Below, piece by piece: positions 49,589 through 63,079 of a stretch of DNA of 64,000 nt. A model generated the notes under the pieces. That model made no database searches. It was not told where the DNA came from and saw only the letters and a program-made list of their open reading frames with translations. The stretch comes from Escherichia phage Ec_Makalu_002. The stretch lies in sequence record MN709127.1; one strand, written 5' to 3'. Numbering within the stretch: the first letter of the stretch is position 1; each line of letters begins with the position of its first letter. Made by a program: the position numbers and the translations under genes.

Positions 49589-50072
49589 ATTTTGCTAAAT
49601 CATTGCAATATTTTAGTGCCTTAGTTTGAAACTCTGCGCTGTTAAGTTCTTCATAACGGTCATAATCACCGTTTAATGCTGCCTTTCTTGCTTCTTGTTC
49701 TATCTGCATGTCAGACATGATAATACAACGATCCCGCGCTTTCATCTTCTCAAGTTGTATAGACTCTTCTTGTTGCTTGCGCAATTCTTCTTGATGCTTC
49801 TTTTCTTCTCGTGCTTTCTCTTCCCGCGCTTCTTTGATTGCATCTTTGAACATCTGCGTTTGTGGTGCTAAACCAACTTTAACGCGATCCACGTCTCGAC
49901 GTTCCATTTTAGAAATAAAACATGATTCGATCTGGTCATCGCTTGCATATGCTGCTTTACATTCACGAAGCAAGAAAACCGGATCTGATTTAGCATTCAT
50001 CATAGCTTCCATGTTAGTACAACCAGTAAGCATGAATGCAGCCGCAAGACCAATCAGTTTAATCATTTTCAT
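49587..50072 (-). CDS. Predicted lipoprotein with coiled-coil region
   Basis: N-terminus MKMIKLIGLAAAFMLTGC (signal peptide with lipobox LTGC); start overlaps stop of upstream gene by 4 nt. Confidence 0.55.
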   Translation of the reverse strand: MKMIKLIGLAAAFMLTGCTNMEAMMNAKSDPVFLLRECKAAYASDDQIESCFISKMERRDVDRVKVGLAPQTQMFKDAIKEAREEKAREEKKHQEELRKQQEESIQLEKMKARDRCIIMSDMQIEQEARKAALNGDYDRYEELNSAEFQTKALKYCNDLAK

Positions 50073-50893
50073 TTAGTCACCTCACCGAAAATTGTAAATT
50101 GTCTACGATTCTCATCGCCGAAAGATTCTACTACGTCGTTTACCTTGATGCAAGTCCCGCGCGGTAAAATTACTTCACATTCGCAAGGATTCCATGCAAT
50201 AGACCCAACAACAAAACCTTTATGATCTTTTACGTCAATTACCCATGATACATTACAAGAATGTTGCATCTTTCCGGTCATTGATTCATATCGATTCTCA
50301 CAATAAAGGCTAGTGCTGTTTGAAAGCCATCCTCCAAAGATGATCGGTGTCATGCTGGTCGATACAAAGTTTTTAAAGGTAAATTCCTTATCTTCAATAA
50401 TACGCTCTATTGTCTGAATGTCAAGATGTTGACCGCGATAAAGAGTACCGTTTAACTTTTCGGTTTTATCCATGACACAATCCATCAAATCGACAATCTC
50501 TGATATCTCATCGGTCATGTCTTCTTCCCCTAAGAGAGCACCATTTACCCATTCGTATTGTTCAGACACATAATCGCAGATTGCATTATATTCTGCTGGG
50601 GTTATGTTGTTATGTTTGTAATGTTTGAATACATTATCTCCAAAATCTTCGGAATGTACTTCATACATCACATTAATGATTTTCTTGACAAATCCATAAT
50701 CTTGCGTTTCTTGCTCAAGGAAACGGATAACTTTCACGTAATCATCAAAGTTAATATGATCGCTGATCATTTCAGTGATCATGTAACCATTAATCCCCTC
50801 AATGCCATATGTTTCGATGTAATTATCCATACGTTCCATCATTGATTCGCGTGATTCTTCGGAAAGGCGAAAATCCTGTAATTTCTTGAACAT
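50069..50893 (-). CDS. ADP-ribosyltransferase, short Alt/Mod-like paralogue
   Basis: R-S-E motif triad: LYRGQ, FVSTS, ECEVILPRG; ATG with GGAGG site. Confidence 0.65.
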   Translation of the reverse strand: MFKKLQDFRLSEESRESMMERMDNYIETYGIEGINGYMITEMISDHINFDDYVKVIRFLEQETQDYGFVKKIINVMYEVHSEDFGDNVFKHYKHNNITPAEYNAICDYVSEQYEWVNGALLGEEDMTDEISEIVDLMDCVMDKTEKLNGTLYRGQHLDIQTIERIIEDKEFTFKNFVSTSMTPIIFGGWLSNSTSLYCENRYESMTGKMQHSCNVSWVIDVKDHKGFVVGSIAWNPCECEVILPRGTCIKVNDVVESFGDENRRQFTIFGEVTK

Positions 50894-50972: not shown

Positions 50973-53024
50973 TTACATTTTAAATTTATCCGGCATAGCG
51001 TCTACAGACACAAGATCAGCGATAAGCTGACGTAGAGTTGCCTTATCTGCTTTCTTACGTTCGGTTTTAGCTTCGGTAATGAAGCTGGAGAAAGACAGGT
51101 CAGAAGCAGGTTTAACAACACCTTCACGGATGAATGCATCACCGTCCGCGATCATCTCACCAGATTCTTGTAATGCTGCCAGTTCATTTTTGTTCATAAT
51201 ATGTGCCTCGATGTAATAAGTTTCTTGTGAATCCGTCGATGCCGTAGCACGAGTTACCGTATCAAAGGATAACACAACACCGCGAGGAAGTAAAATCTCG
51301 CATTCTTTGTAAGCAAATGCTTTGTTACCTACTGGCAATACAGGGATGTTTTCCGCGCCAGCAATGGAGAAAGCAACATTAGCGCCACCTTCACCGCGAG
51401 ATCCCGCCATAGAATCAACACCAGCAACGGCACTAGCCACGTTTGCATTCCAGCCACCAAAAATATTAGGTGCAAGGGAAGTGCTCACATAGTTTTTAAA
51501 GTAAAACGCTTTTTGCTTACGTGCAGTTTCCCACATTTGCGACCGGAAGTCCATACCACGATACAAGATAGTACCTGGATCAAGTTTAACACCATAGTTA
51601 GCAAATGCGTTATCCAGTGCATCACACATCTTGACCAATTCTTCTGGGTCTGCGATGCCTTCAAACTCTTCCAGCTTACGGTCGGTTAGGAAGTTGTTCA
51701 TATTGATGTATGCTGCATCCGCATATTCGCTCAACACAAAACCTTCCGCGCCAGGCAGATCAAGATCAATATCTGCCATCATTTCACCCATGTTGCTAGC
51801 AATTGCTTCAAACATACCGGAAGCAACATTACGCAGGGCATCGGTTTTAATCTGCGTGATGTGACTACGCAGCATTTCAGCTTTTACATCTGCTGGCATA
51901 GACTGGTCGACGCGATCCATTGCCAGGGCGGTGATCTTGTTTTCGAATACTTCCTCGCTCATGATTTCTTTTAAGCGTTTGATTGATGCTGCGATGACTT
52001 CCGCAGACAACGGATCATATTGATCCTGAACTTTTACCAGTTCGCTTACTGCATATTTTGCATCGGCTTCGCTTTCAAAAATAGTACGCATGAAACCATA
52101 GCGAGTGATAATATCACTTGTCCAGTCATTCAGAGAACGGGCGGTTGAACGTTCTAAGGCTTGACGGTCAATCAGAGTATTAAACTGTTTCTTAGGTTCT
52201 GCTTCGGTGATATCTTCTTCCGGTTTAAGATTAATTTTTTCTGGATGATTCACATAGTCGCTGTTATAGGTCGCTTGAGTTTTCAGCATTTCTTCTTTAG
52301 TCAAACGAGATTTAGCCGCTACGCGTTGTTCTGCTTCCGCGTTTCGTTCTTCTTCCGACACAAGACTAGCCGCATACGCCTCATCTTTAGTCAGAGATTC
52401 ACCAGTAGCCTTAGATACCCAGCGATCACCTAAATCACTTTCTACTTTAGTGAACAGGGATTCATCGAGTTTAATCCCTTTAATCTTATCAATCGCCATC
52501 CCGCGACGTTTGACAACAACTAAAGCGATCTTTTTGCTGGTCATTACTTCCTGCTGGAATACTTCAAACTTCGGTGTACGACGCACCAAACGCTCTATAA
52601 CGCGCTTAACCAGTTCGGTCTTACCTTTCATGCGGGATACGTTAAAACGGAACATAACAGCGTCTAATTGCGCTTTACGGGCTGTTTCCATGACCACATC
52701 AAAAGCACTTGACATAACTGCAATCGGGTTATCTCCTAGACCATTTTTAAGCTGTACAATACGACCGCTTTTGTTCATTTCGCACAGTACAACATGTGCG
52801 GTCTTGTCACCCATACGAATGATTTTAGGTGTTTTGTTGGTGAAGTTACAAAGACGGACAATCACATCTTTATCGCGTGTCTGTACTGCAAAAAGCTGTT
52901 TAGGATTCTGCTTAGGCTTTAAGCACTGTACCGGAGCAATACTGCCAAAGTTTTCTTCCTCTTCCGTCAACAGCCATTTCTCGAAAGATTCAATCATTAG
53001 ATCGTCGATTTCTAAGTTAAACAT
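50973..53024 (-). CDS. alt: ADP-ribosyltransferase Alt
   Basis: 683 aa (T4 Alt 682 aa); C-terminal R-S-E motifs LYRGMD, YVSTS, ECEILLPRG; position next to gene 54. Confidence 0.8.
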   Translation of the reverse strand: MFNLEIDDLMIESFEKWLLTEEEENFGSIAPVQCLKPKQNPKQLFAVQTRDKDVIVRLCNFTNKTPKIIRMGDKTAHVVLCEMNKSGRIVQLKNGLGDNPIAVMSSAFDVVMETARKAQLDAVMFRFNVSRMKGKTELVKRVIERLVRRTPKFEVFQQEVMTSKKIALVVVKRRGMAIDKIKGIKLDESLFTKVESDLGDRWVSKATGESLTKDEAYAASLVSEEERNAEAEQRVAAKSRLTKEEMLKTQATYNSDYVNHPEKINLKPEEDITEAEPKKQFNTLIDRQALERSTARSLNDWTSDIITRYGFMRTIFESEADAKYAVSELVKVQDQYDPLSAEVIAASIKRLKEIMSEEVFENKITALAMDRVDQSMPADVKAEMLRSHITQIKTDALRNVASGMFEAIASNMGEMMADIDLDLPGAEGFVLSEYADAAYINMNNFLTDRKLEEFEGIADPEELVKMCDALDNAFANYGVKLDPGTILYRGMDFRSQMWETARKQKAFYFKNYVSTSLAPNIFGGWNANVASAVAGVDSMAGSRGEGGANVAFSIAGAENIPVLPVGNKAFAYKECEILLPRGVVLSFDTVTRATASTDSQETYYIEAHIMNKNELAALQESGEMIADGDAFIREGVVKPASDLSFSSFITEAKTERKKADKATLRQLIADLVSVDAMPDKFKM

Positions 53025-53375: not shown

Positions 53376-53555
53376 TTAGAACATTTTTGAAATTAATTCT
53401 GCTTTGATTTCGCAGAGAACATCTAAAGATTTCTCGTCACCCGCTTTTGCTGCTTCTGCTTGCATTTTTGAAATGGCTTCAATGTCAGTGCAATTATAAG
53501 CCGCTTGAACTTTAGCGATTGCGATGATTGCCGATTCGATGGTTAAGTGTTTCAT
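53376..53555 (-). CDS. Small hypothetical early protein (59 aa)
   Basis: ATG preceded by conserved leader ...AAAGGAGAATCAAAC; below ORF-track cut-off. Confidence 0.45.
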   Translation of the reverse strand: MKHLTIESAIIAIAKVQAAYNCTDIEAISKMQAEAAKAGDEKSLDVLCEIKAELISKMF

Positions 53556-53587
53556 GTTTGATTCTCCTTTCGTTTCGGTATGTGTGC

Positions 53588-53616
53588 AGTATAGGGGATC
53601 GCCGATCCCCTGTCAA
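53588..53616 (-). promoter_or_regulatory. Early promoter with palindromic spacer (TTGACA-GGGGATCGGCGATCCCC-TATACT)
   Basis: Hexamers at 17-bp spacing; the spacer is a GATC-containing hairpin. Confidence 0.6.
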
Positions 53617-53623
53617 CAACTTT

Positions 53624-54142
53624 TTAGTTATTTTTTAATTGCTCATCTTGCAATAATGCAATCACATGCTGGCGATGTTCTTCCGATTGAGGAACACCGA
53701 AAAAGTTTGTTTTGTAGAAATACTCTAATCGGTCTTCTCGTGTGCTCTCTTCCATCATGATCGCGGGTAGTCCAAGATTTCGGAAACGTCGCTTTTCTGC
53801 TGGCGTAAAATCACTGTAATACAACATAGAATCATCATTACCAGCAATGCTAAACTCATCCTTCATAAAGGAGAATATTGCGTTTAAACGCTGTTTACCG
53901 TCCACGATTTCGATCTCATAGCGAGAGCCATCATCAATCTTAGCCATTGCGATAGCACCAACCGGAAAATCATTAATCAGGTTTTCGATAAACATACGTT
54001 TGTTTTCGGTGTCCCATACCAAAGGACGCTGATAATCTGGGTTCATGTTGATATAGCCATCTTCTAACCACGCCTCATAAACAGAGATGACAAAGTTTTT
54101 AGTATTGGTATAGTAACGGCGTTTAGGCGTTAAACGGTTCAT
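53624..54142 (-). CDS. DUF262 (ParB/Srx-like, GmrSD N-terminal-type) domain protein
   Basis: YQRPLVWD ... IVDGKQRLNAI resembles the DUF262 DGQQR motif; ORF track starts at TTG 54178, ATG 54142 has AGGAGA site. Confidence 0.55.
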   Translation of the reverse strand: MNRLTPKRRYYTNTKNFVISVYEAWLEDGYINMNPDYQRPLVWDTENKRMFIENLINDFPVGAIAMAKIDDGSRYEIEIVDGKQRLNAIFSFMKDEFSIAGNDDSMLYYSDFTPAEKRRFRNLGLPAIMMEESTREDRLEYFYKTNFFGVPQSEEHRQHVIALLQDEQLKNN

Positions 54143-54143
54143 G

Positions 54144-54476
54144 TTATAGTCTCCTGAATGGATCATCACGTAAATCAATATCTTTTAAGAACTCATCCCA
54201 TGAATGGCGGATAATGTTCTTAATTCTCCAGATAAGCGCAGGGATTGAACGCTCTCCCATCTGGAAGTAAGGATCATATGATCCATATGCCCAATATGCT
54301 ACTACAATTCCACAATCGGCGCAATAATATTCTATTTCACTTGCTGGCGACCAAAGTCCATCAATATGATCACGGATCTTGCTTTCGATGTTATGGCTAT
54401 GGCAATCAGGGCAACGGATGCAATGACCTTGTTTATCGTAATTTGACGTTAGCGAATACTTAAACAATCTCATCAT
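54144..54476 (-). CDS. Zinc-ribbon protein
   Basis: CIRCPDCHSH ... YCADCG (paired CxxC); start overlaps stop of upstream gene (ATGA). Confidence 0.5.
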   Translation of the reverse strand: MMRLFKYSLTSNYDKQGHCIRCPDCHSHNIESKIRDHIDGLWSPASEIEYYCADCGIVVAYWAYGSYDPYFQMGERSIPALIWRIKNIIRHSWDEFLKDIDLRDDPFRRL

Positions 54477-55189
54477 AGATCCTTATTGGCTTCAAATACT
54501 GCCTTTGCGAATCCTCGCGGGGTAAGTGACCTGATAGTCTTTGTTCTGGTTCCTTTCCCGCCTAGCTTAGAATGCTGTTTACTGTACCCTTTATTAATCT
54601 GCAACGGTTTCTTTTCTGGCATTATAAAGCCTTGTCCGGTCCATAAGCAAGTCTTTTTCGGGTACATATCACGGGCGGCAATATACTCAGGAAACGTAGG
54701 ATGCTTATCATCTTCCGGCAAATAACCGCCATATTCCCACGGATGGAACATGTAATCAGGCTTACGCCACATGCTAGAGATAACGCTTACAGGATTCTCT
54801 ATCATGTAGGGAACTCCTAGCCATTCACCCAAATAAGCGGTTATTTTAGCTGCCCTTACATCATGAACTTGAATTAATGGTCCTTGTTCTCGTTTCTTTC
54901 GTTCAAAGTGCGCAGCGCCACTAACAGCTAAATTGGTGCATGGTGGGAATGCAAAGATAATATCCGGTTTCCCCCATTCAAGGTCCATTGCTCTTTCCAG
55001 CCAATTTAAATCAATCCATGTGTTTACATATGTAATGTTTGGATGTTCAAATCGGGTATTATATTTTTTGTATGTACCGTGGTCGCCATCGTCAGCATTA
55101 AAGCAGATCACCTTATGACCTGCTTTAGCCCATTCTAACCCCATTATCCCCGATCCGTCAAAGTTGCAGAATATTAATTTTTGTTTCAT
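54473..55189 (-). CDS. Compact C5-cytosine methyltransferase-like protein
   Basis: FDGSGIMG (motif I-like), FPPCTNLAVSG (PC motif IV), MIENPV (ENV motif VI), RSLTPRGFAKAV (RxLTPRE-like); 238 aa. Confidence 0.55.
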   Translation of the reverse strand: MKQKLIFCNFDGSGIMGLEWAKAGHKVICFNADDGDHGTYKKYNTRFEHPNITYVNTWIDLNWLERAMDLEWGKPDIIFAFPPCTNLAVSGAAHFERKKREQGPLIQVHDVRAAKITAYLGEWLGVPYMIENPVSVISSMWRKPDYMFHPWEYGGYLPEDDKHPTFPEYIAARDMYPKKTCLWTGQGFIMPEKKPLQINKGYSKQHSKLGGKGTRTKTIRSLTPRGFAKAVFEANKDL

Positions 55190-56754: not shown

Positions 56755-57063
56755 TCATTTAGACAAATAATCATTCAGTGCAATCCGGTCGGCATGTTCC
56801 GGCGTTACATCAATCGCAATCACTTTAACGCGTGCTTTCTTGCGACCTGGGTTTTCTCGTAACCAGTGCTCATGACCGTGAACATTTTTATACTGCGATG
56901 CTTCTTCGAAGGTACGGATCGGACCAGGGTAATCAGCGTAAAGGATCTCTAGGTCATCGGTGATGTAAAAATATACGTTGTAATTACTGTTCTCTAGCTT
57001 AAGCAGAGACTTTCGGAACATTGGGAGATTTTCGCGGGTAAATTCAAAAGTAATATCTTTCAT
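56755..57063 (-). CDS. HxHW-family paralogue P1
   Basis: ATG 57063 with GAGGA site (ORF-track start 57210 overlaps upstream gene); motifs YFYITDDLEI, HGHEHW, VIAIDV. Confidence 0.5.
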   Translation of the reverse strand: MKDITFEFTRENLPMFRKSLLKLENSNYNVYFYITDDLEILYADYPGPIRTFEEASQYKNVHGHEHWLRENPGRKKARVKVIAIDVTPEHADRIALNDYLSK

Positions 57064-57085
57064 AGTATTATCCTCAATAGTTGGA

Positions 57086-57107
57086 TGAAAAGGGGGCTTA
57101 ACGCCCC
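57086..57107 (-). terminator. Minus-strand terminator
   Basis: GGGGCGTTAAGCCCCC followed by TTTT on minus strand; same hairpin core as the wac terminator. Confidence 0.5.
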
Positions 57108-57112
57108 ATATA

Positions 57113-57400
57113 TTAAAACAGTCCTTCCTGTACACCGTAGTAGAGTTCGTCGCTGATAATTTCATTAATGCGACGGTGTGCATATTCCTGATTTGCGAAG
57201 TTGTCAGCAAGTTCTACTTTAGTTTCACCGTCATGAGTCCATTTAGTGATAACTTTACCATCTGCAAATTTGAAGTTGAACTCTTTAGCTACTGCATCGC
57301 GTACCAGACGTGCGAACTTGTTGTTACGGATTGCATTATCGGTTTCGTGTGCAGCGTGAGCAAATTTGTTAACTTTCAGAGTGATAGTGATGTATGCCAT
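57113..57400 (-). CDS. Hypothetical early protein
   Basis: 95 aa; ATG behind conserved leader. Confidence 0.5.
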   Translation of the reverse strand: MAYITITLKVNKFAHAAHETDNAIRNNKFARLVRDAVAKEFNFKFADGKVITKWTHDGETKVELADNFANQEYAHRRINEIISDELYYGVQEGLF

Positions 57401-57446
57401 AATTTGATTCTCCTAGTTAGAAAGTGTATCTCGTTTCGATGGGTGT

Positions 57447-57475
57447 ATTATGCTATACACCCGATCTTATGTCAA
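57447..57475 (-). promoter_or_regulatory. Early promoter (TTGACA-17-CATAAT)
   Basis: Repeated module. Confidence 0.55.
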
Positions 57476-57483
57476 CACTTTTT

Positions 57484-57762
57484 TTATAAAATAATTTTTT
57501 GATATTTTTCTATGATGTTTGTGTAATCCACATCAACCGCTATCACCGTTGCTTCGAATCCACCGTTTAGCCAATGGCTATGGTCATGATCGTGAAAGAA
57601 ACCAAGACCAGTACGAAGACCTTCTTTATATTCGGCGCGTACATTTAGATCATCATCGATAAACAGATAAAACCATGAATTTTTACTAGGATTGATGATA
57701 CAACCTTTCAGATTAGGGAGAATATCACGACTAAGAATAAACTTATCACCTACTTTGAACAT
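57484..57762 (-). CDS. HxHW-family paralogue P2
   Basis: ORF track starts at GTG 57777; ATG 57762 with GAGGA site; motifs FYLFIDDDLNV, HDHDHSHW, VIAVDV. Confidence 0.5.
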   Translation of the reverse strand: MFKVGDKFILSRDILPNLKGCIINPSKNSWFYLFIDDDLNVRAEYKEGLRTGLGFFHDHDHSHWLNGGFEATVIAVDVDYTNIIEKYQKIIL

Positions 57763-57766
57763 AATA

Positions 57767-58087
57767 TTAGTCCTCACTTATAAGGTCAAACCAATTGTTT
57801 TTCGCATAATGCTTAATGCGTGCTTGATCTGCTTCCGCTGGTGATAGATTCCATGCAACCACTACAACTTCTGACGCGTCGTCATCCGTTTCTGATACCC
57901 AATGATTGTGATTCATACAGTTATTTGCGATCGAGTGAGCAAATGATTTCATCACTGGAGACGTATAATCATAGTAACGGATTTTCAGATTTTCATCAAC
58001 ATACAAGTAGATCGTATAAGGTTTATATTCAGTAACCAGTAACAGACAGTTACGCAATTCTGGGAAAATCTTTTTAGTTAATTTCAT
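57767..58087 (-). CDS. HxHW-family paralogue P3
   Basis: ATG 58087 one nt after upstream stop, GAGGA site; motifs YLYVDENLKI, NHNHW. Confidence 0.5.
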   Translation of the reverse strand: MKLTKKIFPELRNCLLLVTEYKPYTIYLYVDENLKIRYYDYTSPVMKSFAHSIANNCMNHNHWVSETDDDASEVVVVAWNLSPAEADQARIKHYAKNNWFDLISED

Positions 58088-58088
58088 T

Positions 58089-58307
58089 TTATAATCCTCG
58101 GTCGCGGCTATAGTACACGGTACGCCATACAATTTCATGTTTCGTGTCGCTCCAGCACACGATCTCATTTACTCTTAAATCTTTGTTATCAACAAAAGAT
58201 GAACATTGTGACGCTTCTTTCATCATTTTATCTGCTGTTTTCTCATCAAATACAGCACAGATTTCTTTATACACTCGATAATCTTTGAATTGACTCTGGA
58301 TACCCAT
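58089..58307 (-). CDS. Hypothetical protein, tandem paralogue of 58267..58524
   Basis: Shares SQFKDYRVYKEI...MMKEASQC with upstream neighbour; start uncertain (58307 or 58319). Confidence 0.4.
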   Translation of the reverse strand: MGIQSQFKDYRVYKEICAVFDEKTADKMMKEASQCSSFVDNKDLRVNEIVCWSDTKHEIVWRTVYYSRDRGL

Positions 58308-58524
58308 AATTAACACCATTCCAACCAATTGTTTTTGAGAAAACGTTTATCCACTGTTGAGTGTAGCATGTTTCTTTCCATGATACAATACGAGTAGAAT
58401 AATGGTTTTTGTTTCCAGAAAAGGACGGGCATTTTGATGCATCTTCCATCATCTTTTCGGCGAACTCCGCGTCATATACCCGCAGGATCTGTTGATATGC
58501 TTTATAATCTTTAAATTTGCTCAT
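58267..58524 (-). CDS. Hypothetical protein, tandem paralogue of 58089..58307
   Basis: SKFKDYKAYQQI...MMEDASKC; ATG start. Confidence 0.45.
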   Translation of the reverse strand: MSKFKDYKAYQQILRVYDAEFAEKMMEDASKCPSFSGNKNHYSTRIVSWKETCYTQQWINVFSKTIGWNGVNYGYPESIQRLSSV

Positions 58525-58789
58525 AATTGTTAACTACCTTATCAGCTTCTTTTATTGTTTTTACATCAACTGCGATAATCCGTAAAGGTTCGTCGAAGGT
58601 CCACCAGTGGTCATGAATATCAGCTTGTGATTTATCACCAAAGGAATCACGAATATCATTTTTACATTTATAGCTAATATGGCCTTCATAGTCAACATAA
58701 AGGTAATTATCGAAAATCGGCGTTTTTAAGATCATACCGAAAAATCTTTCTTTGTGTGTCTTATCAAGTGTTGCAGTAATTCGCATCAT
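58511..58789 (-). CDS. HxHW-family paralogue P4
   Basis: Motifs YLYVDYEGHI, HDHWW, IIAVDV. Confidence 0.5.
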   Translation of the reverse strand: MMRITATLDKTHKERFFGMILKTPIFDNYLYVDYEGHISYKCKNDIRDSFGDKSQADIHDHWWTFDEPLRIIAVDVKTIKEADKVVNNYEQI

Positions 58790-58801
58790 AATATATTCCT
58801 C

Positions 58802-58981
58802 TTAGAAAGGGATGGTCATTTCTTGAGCTTGTACATTCTCGTTAGGATTAAACTTCATCCAACCGATATTGTCTACCAGCATATGTACATTTTTATCATA
58901 TCCTACGTGAGTAGTCAACACTAAATGTGCTTTACCTTCAACGATGATTTCCATGTACTTCTGAACTTCGATAGCTTTCAT
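58802..58981 (-). CDS. Small hypothetical early protein (59 aa)
   Basis: ATG behind conserved leader and promoter; below ORF-track cut-off. Confidence 0.4.
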   Translation of the reverse strand: MKAIEVQKYMEIIVEGKAHLVLTTHVGYDKNVHMLVDNIGWMKFNPNENVQAQEMTIPF

Positions 58982-59013
58982 TTTGATTCTCCGTTTGTTG
59001 TCTTGATGGGAGT

Positions 59014-59042
59014 ATCTTACTACTCCCTTTAATCATTGTCAA
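59014..59042 (-). promoter_or_regulatory. Early promoter (TTGACA-17-TAAGAT) with hairpin overlapping -10
   Basis: GGGAGTA...TACTCCC inverted repeat spans the -10 region. Confidence 0.5.
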
Positions 59043-59045
59043 CTA

Positions 59046-59213
59046 TTATTTGTTAATTTCCGGTGCGTTGCTCGGATAGTAACCTTCTTTAACACCCAGA
59101 TATTTTGCAACCATTCCGGTGATCTTCTGTGCTACTACGATATCGAATTTCAGGTAGTCTTCACCGTGGTTTGCTACAATGTATGCTTCGCATTCTGCTT
59201 TAGTCTGGAACAT
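59046..59213 (-). CDS. Small protein (55 aa), duplicated gene copy B
   Basis: MFQTKAECEAYIVANHGEDYLKFDIVVAQKITGMVAKYLGVKEGYYPSNAPEINK; ORF-track N-terminal extension runs through the promoter leader. Confidence 0.5.
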   Translation of the reverse strand: MFQTKAECEAYIVANHGEDYLKFDIVVAQKITGMVAKYLGVKEGYYPSNAPEINK

Positions 59214-59247
59214 TTTTGATTCTCCTATATCTCGTTGGTATGTGTGC

Positions 59248-59276
59248 ATTATAGGGGATCGGTGATCCCCTGTCAA
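59248..59276 (-). promoter_or_regulatory. Early promoter with palindromic spacer (TTGACA-GGGGATCACCGATCCCC-TATAAT)
   Basis: Consensus hexamers, 17-bp GATC-hairpin spacer. Confidence 0.6.
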
Positions 59277-59283
59277 CAACTTT

Positions 59284-59580
59284 TTATGATTTTTCTTTAT
59301 ATGCGTATTGAATAAATTGGTCCGCCACTTCGTCGGCTTTTTCGGGTTTGACTTCTGACGCCAGGACAATAGCTAGATCGGTTTCGTCGTTCCCGTCATA
59401 CCAATGATTATGAGTGTCTTTTTCTTTGATATAGAATGAGTCATTTGGAGTTGGACGACAATATACGTCTAAATTCTCGTCGATGTAAAAGATCCAATCT
59501 TCATAAAGAATAACCGTATTAGCAAGGTTCTTATTACCTTCAACGAAAGGTTCGGTTACAAACAAATCAGTACGTTCCAT
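59284..59580 (-). CDS. HxHW-family paralogue P5
   Basis: Motifs IFYIDENLDV, HNHW. Confidence 0.5.
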   Translation of the reverse strand: MERTDLFVTEPFVEGNKNLANTVILYEDWIFYIDENLDVYCRPTPNDSFYIKEKDTHNHWYDGNDETDLAIVLASEVKPEKADEVADQFIQYAYKEKS

Positions 59581-59595
59581 AGTATTTTCCTCAAA

Positions 59596-59757
59596 TTAAG
59601 AAAAAGCGTTGAAAACAACCGCCAACACAACTACGTTAGCGATAAGGCTTAAAAAGCATTTCTTGAAACTTTCAGTGCAGATACCAATACTGGCAGGAAT
59701 TACACCGATCACGATAGCATAAAGAATAACTGCGATTTCTTGAAATACACCGTTCAT
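59596..59757 (-). CDS. Small hydrophobic protein (53 aa)
   Basis: Largely hydrophobic sequence; ATG with GAGGA site; below ORF-track cut-off. Confidence 0.4.
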   Translation of the reverse strand: MNGVFQEIAVILYAIVIGVIPASIGICTESFKKCFLSLIANVVVLAVVFNAFS

Positions 59758-59814
59758 AATATTATCCTCAAAGTATGGGAGAGTGTTACCCCTCCCGATG
59801 ATTGTTATATTGCA

Positions 59815-60147
59815 TCACACAAAATGGCGTGTCAATGCTTCTTTTGCGGTTCCGCTAAGATTCTCGATCTCTCCTGGCATAACATCAACCGCCAGAACTT
59901 CTACAACATCCTCTGTTCCTAACCAGTGAGTATGACCTTTGTAGAACTTGATGCCCATATTGCCTTCTTCGTCCCATTTAACGCCCCATTTAACGTTATC
60001 ACTAGCCCACCACACATCACCGTCGATAAAGTTGATGTAAAGCACACTACGCCACATTGAATTAGTTACTTTCAATACCGCGCCTTTCATCTCTTCCACG
60101 GTGTGGTCTTCCATTTTGAAGACCTCGCCTACCTGAACTTTTGCCAT
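59815..60147 (-). CDS. HxHW-family paralogue P6
   Basis: Motifs LYINFIDGDV, GHTHW, VLAVDV. Confidence 0.5.
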   Translation of the reverse strand: MAKVQVGEVFKMEDHTVEEMKGAVLKVTNSMWRSVLYINFIDGDVWWASDNVKWGVKWDEEGNMGIKFYKGHTHWLGTEDVVEVLAVDVMPGEIENLSGTAKEALTRHFV

Positions 60148-60164: not shown

Positions 60165-60344
60165 TTACATAACAATCACGCCAGCCGTTGAAAGTTGATG
60201 TTTCAACTGAGCATTTTCTGCTACTGTCAAATCAATGATTTCTTGTGACGCTGCAATCATATAGCCATTGGTGATATTGTTTTGCATCAGTTCAATGGTT
60301 TCTTCGTTGTAGCGGATTTTAGCGATGATTTCGTTGAAGTTCAT
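60165..60344 (-). CDS. Hypothetical early protein (59 aa)
   Basis: ATG 60344 behind conserved leader; ORF-track start 60380 lies inside the -10 element. Confidence 0.45.
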   Translation of the reverse strand: MNFNEIIAKIRYNEETIELMQNNITNGYMIAASQEIIDLTVAENAQLKHQLSTAGVIVM

Positions 60345-60378
60345 GTTTGATTCTCCTAGTTCGTTTCGGTATGTGTGC

Positions 60379-60408
60379 ATTATAGGGGATCTCCCGACCC
60401 CCTGTCAA
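60379..60408 (-). promoter_or_regulatory. Early promoter with palindromic spacer (TTGACA-GGGGGTCGGGAGATCCCC-TATAAT)
   Basis: Consensus hexamers, 18-bp hairpin spacer. Confidence 0.6.
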
Positions 60409-60421
60409 CAACTTTTTTGAA

Positions 60422-60898
60422 TTATTTTTCTTGATGCTCGCGCTCGTACTTTTCGAAATAAAATTCTACTGGCTGATCGTGGATTGAAAGCAAGCCAAAG
60501 CGTTTAGCCGCACGTAATCCCATGTTACGTTGAATGTACTTCTGGAAGTTCTCGCGTATACACTTACGCCAGTATTCTAAGCCCATACAGCTTTTGTAAA
60601 GATTGCATTGCACACAAGCCGGATTCATGTTGTCAAGTATATCGTGCTCCGGTTTATGCATTCCTACAACCTTATACTTCCACGACCCATCATCATTACG
60701 GGCAATTCGTCCATTTTCATCATAGACTACTTTTGAGCGTCGCAATACTGGTTTGATGTGGTCTGCGTGCCAGCGATCCCCTAGTTCCTCGCCACAATAG
60801 GCACAACGTCCACCGTATTTCATTTTCAGGATCTGGCGTTGCTCTTTCTTTGACAATTTTTTAGGTTTAGGGGCTTTCGCCCCTTCATTATCACACAT
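60422..60898 (-). CDS. HNH endonuclease
   Basis: CAYCG ... WHADHIKP ... N ... CVQCN (HNH zinc-finger nuclease signature); start overlaps 3' end of ligase gene. Confidence 0.7.
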   Translation of the reverse strand: MCDNEGAKAPKPKKLSKKEQRQILKMKYGGRCAYCGEELGDRWHADHIKPVLRRSKVVYDENGRIARNDDGSWKYKVVGMHKPEHDILDNMNPACVQCNLYKSCMGLEYWRKCIRENFQKYIQRNMGLRAAKRFGLLSIHDQPVEFYFEKYEREHQEK

Positions 60899-62393
60899 CG
60901 AATACCTCTTTTACTGTATTTGCAGTGGTCTTGTCGTAGCGAATACGTTTGATGATTGGGAGAAATAAAGAGAACTCCGGTTCATCTTCTTTACGTGATT
61001 TGCTGCGGATATATCCGTTGCATGTCATCTCAATGACTTTTCCAATCAGGTTATGACGGTCAGCCCATAACATTTCTCGGTCAAGTTCATTTCGACGATC
61101 GAACGGAATTACACGTTCAATACCATCATCACCTTTTTCGGTTGTGGTGTCTGTCAATCCCGATCCGGTGTTAGTCATCATTCGTCCGCACGCACTACGG
61201 ACAGTAAAACCGCCTACCTTGTTAGGTTCTTTACTGTGCGGATATACATCAACAATTTCCGCGTCGAAGTCAATCACTTCTTTAAATTTAACCTGGTCTT
61301 TACTGCGACGATCTTCAAATACACCATGTAAATTTTTAAGGATAATACCTTCTAATCCCATGTTGACATAACGATGATATACTTCGCGAGCTTCATCGAT
61401 ATTGTTAACTACAGTATTTTCGATTATCTGAACACGAGGATCGTTAAGTTCTTCAACAATCTGTTTTAGTTCTTCGAATCGATCTTTATATTGCTTCGTT
61501 GCTTTCTCGTTTCCGTAATACACATCACGGTCGATAACATCCCAGACAGTGTAAACAATACATTGGGCTTCTTCTTTTGGAATAGTTCCTTTCAGTGATT
61601 TGTTGAGGATACCATTTCCGGTCTGACGGTCTGCAACAACGGATTCTTTCACTGCTTCCGCTACTGGCGTTAATGGCATTTCCTCTTCTTCAAATATCCA
61701 TGATAGAGTACCATCATAAACGCTCTCAACGAAGTTCTGCGCTGGTGTTTGAGAAAGGGTAGGCATATATACCAACTCACCATCTAAAACAATTCCACGG
61801 CCTCGTAGACGCTCTAAAACAGCAAACAAATCATCCAGCCCCTGATAGGTATTACCTGAACGGGTATAGATTGCTAATGTTTCTCCGTCAATATCAGCCA
61901 TACCACGAGCGCCATCGCTTTTAAGTTGTGCATACGCCGGATATTTGATATTGGCAATAGTCTTATCAGAACATGACGATGCAAGGTGGCACGGCTGCTG
62001 AGGAATCAGCTTCTTCCATACCTTGTTTGCGGTGGTAGCGGAACAACCGCATTCCAGATCACGATTCAGGACCATCATTGCAACTTTAGCATCATCTTCT
62101 GACAAGCAAGTCAGAGTATCGGTAACTAGCTGTAATGCAGCATTACCAGTTACTTGACGCGTGGCAAGTTTATTTTTAAAGACCTGTAATGCACCGGATA
62201 AAGACAATACAGACGAATAGCGAGACGGTTTATCGTATTTCTTTACGCCAAACGTAACCTGCTTGCAATATGCCAGATAAAAGCATTCTTTCAGCGTTTC
62301 ATTGCTTGCAGATTCTTTCAGGATCTTTTCTTTCAGCGATGTTTTGTCAGTAGCTGCAAGCTGATTAATGATATTAAGAATTGACATTTTCAC
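60891..62393 (-). CDS. 30: ATP-dependent DNA ligase gp30
   Basis: 500 aa; adenylation motif I YAQLKSDGAR (KxDG); size close to T4 gp30. Confidence 0.85.
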   Translation of the reverse strand: MKMSILNIINQLAATDKTSLKEKILKESASNETLKECFYLAYCKQVTFGVKKYDKPSRYSSVLSLSGALQVFKNKLATRQVTGNAALQLVTDTLTCLSEDDAKVAMMVLNRDLECGCSATTANKVWKKLIPQQPCHLASSCSDKTIANIKYPAYAQLKSDGARGMADIDGETLAIYTRSGNTYQGLDDLFAVLERLRGRGIVLDGELVYMPTLSQTPAQNFVESVYDGTLSWIFEEEEMPLTPVAEAVKESVVADRQTGNGILNKSLKGTIPKEEAQCIVYTVWDVIDRDVYYGNEKATKQYKDRFEELKQIVEELNDPRVQIIENTVVNNIDEAREVYHRYVNMGLEGIILKNLHGVFEDRRSKDQVKFKEVIDFDAEIVDVYPHSKEPNKVGGFTVRSACGRMMTNTGSGLTDTTTEKGDDGIERVIPFDRRNELDREMLWADRHNLIGKVIEMTCNGYIRSKSRKEDEPEFSLFLPIIKRIRYDKTTANTVKEVFDV

Positions 62394-62853
62394 CTCGTTT
62401 TGTTAAACGTTCACGAATATCGTTTAGGATACTACAAAATTCCGATTCGGTCAATATGGTCTTTAACGGATCAGTTCCACCTATGCTATGACGCAATTTC
62501 TTATTTCCGGTAGCGAGCAATGCTTTACAAAAATCTGGGTTATTTCGTGCCATCGTAACAAATGCCAGATGTACCAGTCTGTAATAATGCTCACTCATTC
62601 GATGAATCGGGCGACCCTGAAAATATAGCATGTGATTCTCTATCTTTTCAGTCCTTCCGGTTCTTTTTGCTTTGCAGCCGTGCATCAAAAAGATTTCTCT
62701 TTGTCTCTGAGGGTTCTTAAATCTTAGCCCCTGTAAAAATCCTTCTGTGCTGTTAATATCGCAACCAAATAGACGGAATGGCCTTTTATTGAAATTACTC
62801 AACTCGCCAGATGGATAAGGTCCACCCGCATAGATATCAATTTCAGAAGTCAT
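62374..62853 (-). CDS. NADAR (YbiA-like, DUF1768) domain protein
   Basis: GELSNF...STEGFLQGLRF and ALLATGNKKLRH parallel E. coli YbiA FSNF...TSEHYFQAQKF and ALLLAT..KLVEH as recalled. Confidence 0.6.
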   Translation of the reverse strand: MTSEIDIYAGGPYPSGELSNFNKRPFRLFGCDINSTEGFLQGLRFKNPQRQREIFLMHGCKAKRTGRTEKIENHMLYFQGRPIHRMSEHYYRLVHLAFVTMARNNPDFCKALLATGNKKLRHSIGGTDPLKTILTESEFCSILNDIRERLTKRGENVNS

Positions 62854-63007
62854 TGAAACTAATCTCGCTAATCAGAGAGAACGGATCATAATCGTCATGA
62901 GGAATATCGATAGTAATCGAGTGAGGATTTACCCATACACCAAACTGGTCTTCTTCGGTGAATACTTCGGTATGGATTTCGTGGATGTTTACATTCATAG
63001 TTTTCAT
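62843..63007 (-). CDS. Small hypothetical protein (54 aa)
   Basis: ATG-initiated ORF overlapping the NADAR gene start; weak ribosome site. Confidence 0.3.
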   Translation of the reverse strand: MKTMNVNIHEIHTEVFTEEDQFGVWVNPHSITIDIPHDDYDPFSLISEISFNDF

Positions 63008-63051: not shown

Positions 63052-63079
63052 CAAAATATAGGCGGGATTATTTCCCGCC
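63052..63079 (-). terminator. Minus-strand terminator after gene 31
   Basis: GGCGGGAAATAATCCCGCC followed by T-rich tract on minus strand. Confidence 0.5.

Follow-up and report, generated by a model that had tools for sequence, protein, structure and literature searches.

What might a T4-like coliphage gain from a 159-residue open reading frame (ORF) whose 3' end runs into the start of its DNA ligase gene? The question is raised by a 64,000-nucleotide stretch of Escherichia phage Ec_Makalu_002 (sequence record MN709127.1), referred to here at its full length as the window. An initial annotation made from the letters alone placed the ORF at 62374..62853 and read it as a NADAR (YbiA-like) protein with a possible counter-defence or repair function against ADP-ribosylation of phage DNA. 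The coordinates are exact, with the ORF on the minus strand, and the 159-residue translation contains all three peptides that had been quoted: GELSNF (residues 16-21), STEGFLQGLRF (35-45) and ALLATGNKKLRH (111-122). Judged by sequence comparison, the ORF corresponds in Krischvirus to T4 gene 30.3 (adfN), as its orthologue, and is a minimal, single-domain member of the gp30.3 NADAR branch; its product is likely to act, as the T4 protein does, against the DarTG1 defence system.

The assignment to the gp30.3 family is carried by several searches. The protein matched the Pfam family PF08010 (Bacteriophage protein GP30.3) across profile positions 2-138 of 138 with a score of 133.6 bits (E = 5e-39), against a curated cut-off of 36 bits, and it also matched phrog_652 (E = 2e-45). 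BLASTP aligned residues 3-150 with residues 2-152 of T4 gp30.3 at 38% identity (E = 4e-31), and this ORF was the sole match when T4 30.3 was searched against the window by tblastn. Homologues were found by tblastn in 1509 phage records. Although a word-indexed homologue search returned only 14 proteins, an exhaustive profile search revealed the size of the family, with 1680 clusters (50% identity, E <= 1e-3), many of them fused to other domains. Given the PF08010 and phrog_652 matches and this broad set of homologues, the ORF is not a chance one. No NCBIfam model matched the protein or the two ADP-ribosyltransferases encoded in the same window. As seen among gp30.3-family proteins P0015, P0019, P0026, P0052 and P0079, some carry two or three tandem NADAR domains, and many others are 200-560 residues long and fused to further domains.

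The gene is shared by close relatives of the phage. Over the 4 kb around adfN, identity is 99.3% with Escherichia phage Ec_Makalu_003 (classified in its record as Straboviridae; Krischvirus gec3s) and 95-99% with another 58 records of coliphages and Shigella phages; adfN itself is kept at 95-100% identity across 59 Krischvirus-type records. By the taxonomy of the record, the phage that carries this orthologue is a Krischvirus, within the Straboviridae and outside the subfamily Tevenvirinae. The identical protein (100%) has been deposited from Ec_Makalu_003 as Makalu003_212 (QHJ73160.1), a "hypothetical protein". In Escherichia phage MX01 (NC_031934, 2498..2956) the 30.3/AdfN homologue YP_009324098.1 is annotated 'DNA ligase', evidently an error inherited from the neighbouring gene.

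A search of the 64 kb with the T4 proteins from alt.1 to cd.4 found no match for 30.1, 30.2, 30.4-30.9, rIII, alt.1 or 31.2. The T4 31 and cd.1-cd.4 proteins were likewise undetected by tblastn in the window, gene 31 nonetheless being found through its PHROG profile. Gene 30.3 is thus the only gene of the 30.1-30.9 block with a detectable homologue in the window, unlike the situation in T4, and this suggests selective retention.

Placement of the protein in the NADAR superfamily rests on PF08010 together with profile-profile and fold evidence, because the Pfam NADAR profile (PF08719, formerly DUF1768), which had been named as the check to make, scored only 14.9 bits (E = 0.032), which is below its cut-off of 35.1. 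Pfam models the gp30.3 branch apart from NADAR, as PF08010, and PF08719 weakly matched 11 of the 14 family members (best E = 1e-6). Plain sequence searches against the PDB gave no or marginal matches, and a hidden Markov model (HMM) built from the family alignment (14 sequences) found only YbiA there, a match that points the right way but at an E-value that is not significant alone (0.054). When the family alignment was compared with E. coli YbiA by hhalign, the probability was 89.8% (E = 1.8e-6) over residues 5-150. The AlphaFold2 (AF2) model (pLDDT 94.1, pTM 0.89) is predicted to have the YbiA/NADAR fold, a helical core flanked by small beta-sheets. With Foldseek, its only significant matches in the PDB were YbiA (2b3w) and the Phytophthora nicotianae NADAR with ADP-ribose (PnNADAR-ADPr, 8bau), and in the BFVD viral structure library gp30.3-type phage proteins (TM 0.92) were followed by dozens of proteins named NADAR. 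Johannesman et al. (PMC11825919) reported the same trio of structure matches for T4 AdfN. These lines of evidence settle membership of the NADAR superfamily, at the level of profiles and a predicted structure. Of the original label, 'NADAR' holds on the hhalign, fold and residue evidence, but 'YbiA-like' does not in the strict sense, as the protein belongs to the separate gp30.3 branch and its last strand carries His in place of Glu.

Equivalents of the catalytic Glu and His, which the initial annotation took to be required, are both found in the alignment, at Glu37 and His122, and the LSNF motif, the Glu37-x3-Gln41 motif and the C-terminal helix are also conserved in the 159-residue protein. 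At Glu37 the family sequence 'sMEgllQslKf' aligns with 'TSEHYFQAQKF' of YbiA, and of 168 aligned family domains 163 have Glu in this column. His122 is invariant in the family alignment A1, its column is His in 159 of 163 domains of the larger set, and hhalign places it at most one residue from the Glu of LVEH in YbiA. This last-strand residue separates the NADARs, being His in phage proteins (gp30.3), Glu in the YbiA family and Asp in the DarG1/BC4488 family (PMC11125620, PMC11543638, PMC12945103). The C-terminal helix (residues 136-157) is modelled at high pLDDT, and the alignment extends to the last residue of T4 AdfN. The RB69 allele, which is inactive, lacks this helix, and the truncation correlates with DarTG1 sensitivity (PMC11825919).

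The protein departs from T4 AdfN at the Lys that coordinates phosphate, where it has Arg44. Among 171 domains, taken from the family proteins retrieved (more than one domain in some of them), T4 gp30.3 and the protein of the window, three are gapped at this column and the other 168 have Lys (160), Arg (6) or another residue (2). The six Arg rows are the window protein, its two closest clusters (P0001 and P0002) and three others; gp30.3 of Acinetobacter phage Ac42 likewise has Arg at this position. This natural exchange of Lys for Arg, at an active-site position sensitive to mutation, is the only new detail in this gene, and it leaves the identity of the gene unaffected.

The function of the T4 protein is known from the literature. 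T4 gp30.3 was renamed AdfN (anti-DarT factor NADAR) and is a guanine-specific DNA ADP-ribosylglycohydrolase (PMC11825919, PMC11125620). T4 and T2 lacking adfN do not plate on DarTG1 hosts, and AdfN is required, and also suffices, for T-even resistance (PMC11825919). Ectopic adfN rescues RB69, with rescue weakened by E36A and by K43A, and purified T4 AdfN strips ADP-ribose off DarT1-modified DNA, which the E36A protein does not (PMC11825919). In vitro, T4 AdfN hydrolyses the ADP-ribose adduct of guanine (G-ADPr) and not that of thymine (T-ADPr; PMC11125620) or of cytosine (C-ADPr; PMC12945103). In a transposon screen, T4 30.3 was dispensable on E. coli K-12 and essential only in the presence of DarTG1 (bioRxiv 10.1101/2025.11.20.689424).

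If the orthologue works in the same way, it would be made from an early- or middle-expressed string of genes running from gene 31 to gene 30. In a DarTG1-type host, the DarT1 toxin would ADP-ribosylate guanine N2 in the phage DNA and block replication; the NADAR would cut the N-glycosidic bond between ribose and guanine, releasing ADP-ribose and returning the DNA to its unmodified state so that replication could proceed. Glu37 and His122 would be situated at the distal-ribose site and Arg44 would replace the Lys that coordinates the ADP-ribose phosphates, while the C-terminal helix would complete the NADAR fold. That the 159-residue protein is an AdfN-type anti-DarTG1 guanine-ADPr DNA glycohydrolase is, in our judgement, likely. 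Orthology, fold, residue conservation and gene context were computed here, and activity and phenotype are taken over from T4 and T2 AdfN. The original suggestion of counter-defence against DarT-type ADP-ribosylation of DNA thus gains support from orthology to T4 AdfN and the published DarTG1 phenotype. Since the Krischvirus clade has Arg at the phosphate-binding Lys, we can only infer full activity, that is, that the Arg44-bearing orthologue would act as T4 AdfN does.

Several points weigh against this reading, in addition to the sub-threshold PF08719 match. The Arg at position 44 replaces a Lys that matters in T4, so that the enzyme could be less potent or have a shifted specificity. T4 AdfN gives uninfected cells no protection from DarT1 and non-T-even phages only partial protection, which suggests a T-even cofactor; full activity appears to need such a factor, whose presence in Ec_Makalu_002 would then be a condition. 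The Krischvirus group is not among the phages tested in PMC11825919, and no paper pairing Krischvirus with DarTG was found in the literature searched.

The first of these points leads to the alternative that survives best, namely that an Arg44 sub-clade, made up of Krischvirus, Ac42-type Acinetobacter phages and a few metagenomic proteins, has an attenuated or re-specified AdfN. The rarity of Arg in the column and its recurrence in Ac42 are in keeping with this, as are two published mutants: K95R in the NADAR of E. coli C7 keeps guanine-ADPr hydrolysis in vitro and loses rescue from DarT1 in vivo (PMC11543638), and K43A in T4 AdfN gives only partial rescue (PMC11825919). A re-specified enzyme could target RNA guanine-ADPr, the product of another DarT- or pierisin-like toxin, or another context of sequence or structure, and all NADAR families remove RNA G-ADPr in vitro (PMC12945103). 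Nevertheless, Arg retains the positive charge and all other conserved positions are intact. Conservation across the 59 records and retention as the sole 30.x gene argue for a selected, working function, and nothing indicates one particular alternative substrate. We therefore regard an attenuated or re-specified enzyme as unlikely. It is similarly improbable that the sub-clade is a functionally distinct AdfN in which the altered phosphate contact changes the substrate range or frees the enzyme from the T-even cofactor. Were it so, the substrate range might extend towards RNA guanine-ADPr or other DarT- or pierisin-like toxin products. Even under the preferred reading of an AdfN-type enzyme, the natural Lys-to-Arg change offers a cheap natural experiment on phosphate recognition by NADARs.

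It is very unlikely that soluble ADP-ribose derivatives, such as immune signals made from NAD or compounds left over from RNA repair, are the substrate of the enzyme in place of DNA adducts. Iyer et al. proposed this for phage NADARs on contextual grounds that predate the biochemistry, and the same phage encodes an RNA ligase A and a polynucleotide kinase a few kilobases upstream, but the experiments on the T4 orthologue demonstrated hydrolysis of DNA G-ADPr and a DarTG1-specific phenotype, and the gp30.3 branch has no demonstrated soluble substrate.

The surroundings of the gene had suggested that the protein might instead serve the phage's own enzymes, either by pairing with the DNA ligase in repair or by erasing or tuning the marks of the ADP-ribosyltransferases (ARTs) about 10 kb away. 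The features behind this idea are real. The 3' end of adfN, including its stop codon, overlaps the start of the ligase gene by 14 nucleotides if the ligase begins at the ATG at 62387, or by 20 if it begins at an upstream GTG; two tandem PF03496 genes lie 9.3-12.3 kb from the ORF; and the linkage alt-30-30.3 also occurs in T4 and Ac42. However, the order 31 ... 30.3 ... 30 ... alt is common to T4, MX01, Ac42 and phiAS5, where at least one gene separates 30.3 from the ligase gene, and the comparison of gene orders points to ancestral T4-type synteny as its explanation. The 30.3 gene is placed elsewhere in two phages, amid tRNA genes in Klebsiella phage KP1 and next to a helicase in Rhizobium phage RL38J1. 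As the gene order is inherited and the ligase linkage is lost in KP1 and RL38J1, the linkage is weak evidence for a repair partnership, and the overlap is best explained by 30.2 and 30.1 having been lost rather than by a functional pairing. Moreover, the base stays intact once ADP-ribose has been taken off guanine N2, so that there is no nick to seal. T4 Alt/Mod-type enzymes modify host proteins and not DNA, and the Alt family consists of arginine-specific protein ARTs, whereas NADARs cut N-glycosidic bonds between base and ribose; the two neighbouring genes are of the Alt type. The co-occurrence of NADAR and ART genes among the early genes of T4-like phages has been remarked on earlier (PMC9503650). 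With T4 30.3 dispensable on K-12 and essential only with DarTG1, both ligase coupling and a role as eraser for the phage's own ARTs were set aside, and a partnership of either kind seems highly improbable.

Least credible of all is a YbiA-type N-glycosidase of riboflavin-pathway intermediates, engaged in metabolite damage control, for although E. coli YbiA is the best single fold match in the PDB and the RefSeq name is 'N-glycosidase', the last-strand Glu that defines YbiA is His here, identity to YbiA is about 20%, the phenotype of the T4 orthologue is DarTG1-specific and the neighbourhood contains no riboflavin genes.

The probable anti-DarTG1 glycohydrolase is closest in its features to T4 AdfN, with which it shares a size class (159 vs 152 residues), a core-only NADAR fold, the LSNF and E-x3-Q motifs, the last-strand His, the C-terminal helix and the same slot between gene 31 and gene 30 in a genome of T4 type. 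It differs in having Arg44 for Lys43 and in abutting and overlapping the ligase gene, with 30.2 and 30.1 absent. The T4 gene also contains an internal ORF in another frame, 30.3'. The NADARs of DarG1 (BC4488 family; E. coli C7 and Geobacter/Trichlorobacter lovleyi, PDB 8bat) have been described as the nearest relatives of the AdfN-T4 cluster outside phages and would catalyse the same reaction, removal of ADP-ribose from guanine N2. Unlike them, the window protein lacks an N-terminal extension (137 residues align of the 219 in 8bat) and has His122 rather than a catalytic Asp, and T4 AdfN differs from DarG1 in its failure to rescue uninfected cells. The gene is also an orphan, as no DarT1 gene is adjacent: in the region examined (about 49.5-64 kb) the only ARTs are of the Alt type (PF03496), 9-12 kb away.

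More distant NADARs share less. E. coli YbiA (2b3w) has the (S)NF and E-x3-Q-x2-(K/R) motifs in common with the window protein. It is chromosomal, encoded in a LexA-controlled operon with dinG and rhlE, and annotated as an N-glycosidase of riboflavin intermediates. The P. nicotianae protein in 8bau is eukaryotic, has 189 residues and carries E125 at the site of His122. AdfN-Bas32 (from a T5-like phage) and AdfN-Bas60 (Vequintavirinae) are, like the window protein, phage-encoded orphan NADARs, and both counter DarTG1. They are independent acquisitions from other NADAR branches that BLAST from AdfN-T4 misses, and unlike T4 AdfN they work without T-even infection.

The gp30.3 family, its NADAR nature (seen earlier by others through bioinformatics), its enzymology and its role in counter-defence have already been published, and the exact protein is already in GenBank; the orthologue is an ordinary member of the AdfN family in a T4-like coliphage of the GEC-3S/RB49 type. 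The identification supplies a functional name for a gene that some 59 near-identical records of Krischvirus-type phages list as a "hypothetical protein". That adfN alone of the T4 30.x accessory genes has survived in this lineage fits long-standing selection by defences that ADP-ribosylate DNA. The coordinates of the gene, its active-site codons and the features around it are collected in Table 1.

Table 1. Positions in the window of the adfN orthologue, its predicted functional residues and nearby genes
Feature	Position	Strand	Remarks
adfN / gene 30.3 orthologue, 159 residues, ATG start, predicted guanine-ADP-ribose DNA glycohydrolase	62374..62853	-	Single-domain phage-type NADAR
Glu37 codon GAA	62743..62745	-	Equivalent to T4 AdfN catalytic E36 and E. 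coli YbiA E48 in pairwise, hhalign and HMM alignments
Arg44 codon AGA	62722..62724	-	Site of the phosphate-coordinating Lys (T4 AdfN K43, YbiA K55, E. coli C7 NADAR K95)
His122 codon CAT	62488..62490	-	Last-strand His; aligns with T4 H123
C-terminal alpha-helix codons (residues 136-157, extended to last residue 159)	62377..62448	-	DSSP on the AF2 model
Gene 30, ATP-dependent DNA ligase	60891..62387 (ATG as annotated in Ec_Makalu_003); 60891..62393 (from GTG)	-	PF01068, phrog_114
54-residue ORF upstream of adfN	62843..63007	-	phrog_15277; annotated CDS Makalu003_213 in Ec_Makalu_003; first gene past the terminator
Intrinsic-terminator-like hairpin GGCGGGA...TCCCGCC with T-run, just after gene 31	63061..63079	-	Annotated terminator in Ec_Makalu_003
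Alt-like ADP-ribosyltransferase, 683 residues, full-length	50973..53024	-	PF03496 (E = 5.6e-9); phrog_802 'Alt-like RNA polymerase ADP-ribosyltransferase' (E = 1e-179)
ADP-ribosyltransferase, 274 residues, corresponding to the Alt catalytic region	50069..50893	-	PF03496 (E = 1e-15); phrog_15144

Around adfN the genes are closely packed on one strand. The terminator-like hairpin forms the upstream boundary of a string composed of the 54-residue ORF, adfN, the ligase gene and an HNH endonuclease gene, and the end of the 54-residue ORF and the start of adfN share 11 nucleotides. A scan for sigma-70-type promoters between the gene-31 terminator and the 54-residue ORF found none, and the overall number of sites equalled the expectation from shuffled sequence. 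The ligase ORF matched PF01068 (E = 2.8e-22) and phrog_114 (E = 4.5e-141) and is 41% identical to T4 gp30.

The last 8 nucleotides of the ligase gene are shared with the HNH endonuclease ORF (158 residues, 60422..60898, minus strand; PF01844; phrog_2118, E = 8e-55). T4 has no HNH counterpart at this position, and the ORF is probably a free-standing homing-type endonuclease inserted beside gene 30. The site at which T4 alt.1 adjoins gene 30 is occupied here by a series of small paralogous ORFs (56755..60147, minus strand). Two of them, 58089..58328 and 58267..58524, are 43% identical (E = 1e-16), and those at 56755..57210, 57484..57777, 57767..58168, 58511..58789, 59284..59580 and 59815..60147 show weak mutual similarity that includes an H-x-H-W motif. 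A perfect sigma-70 consensus (TTGACA-N18-TATAAT) is present just downstream of the HNH gene, at 60379..60408 on the minus strand, and the peptide 'RSPI(L/M)HTY(R/Q)' is common to spurious ORFs at 53512..53619, 59046..59369 and 60165..60380. Together, the consensus and the common peptide indicate that a repeated promoter/leader DNA element precedes several small early genes.

Further along the same strand, a stand-alone ORF of 184 residues (53624..54178) resembles DUF262/GmrSD_N, matching PF03235 (E = 5e-20) and only the N-terminal half of phrog_1583. Its neighbours are a zinc-ribbon ORF (phrog_2993, 54144..54476, minus strand) and a DNA-methyltransferase-like ORF (phrog_757, 54473..55189, minus strand). 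The DUF262 ORF may represent a piece of a type IV restriction-like domain carried by the phage next to a methyltransferase, and as such may merit a separate look.

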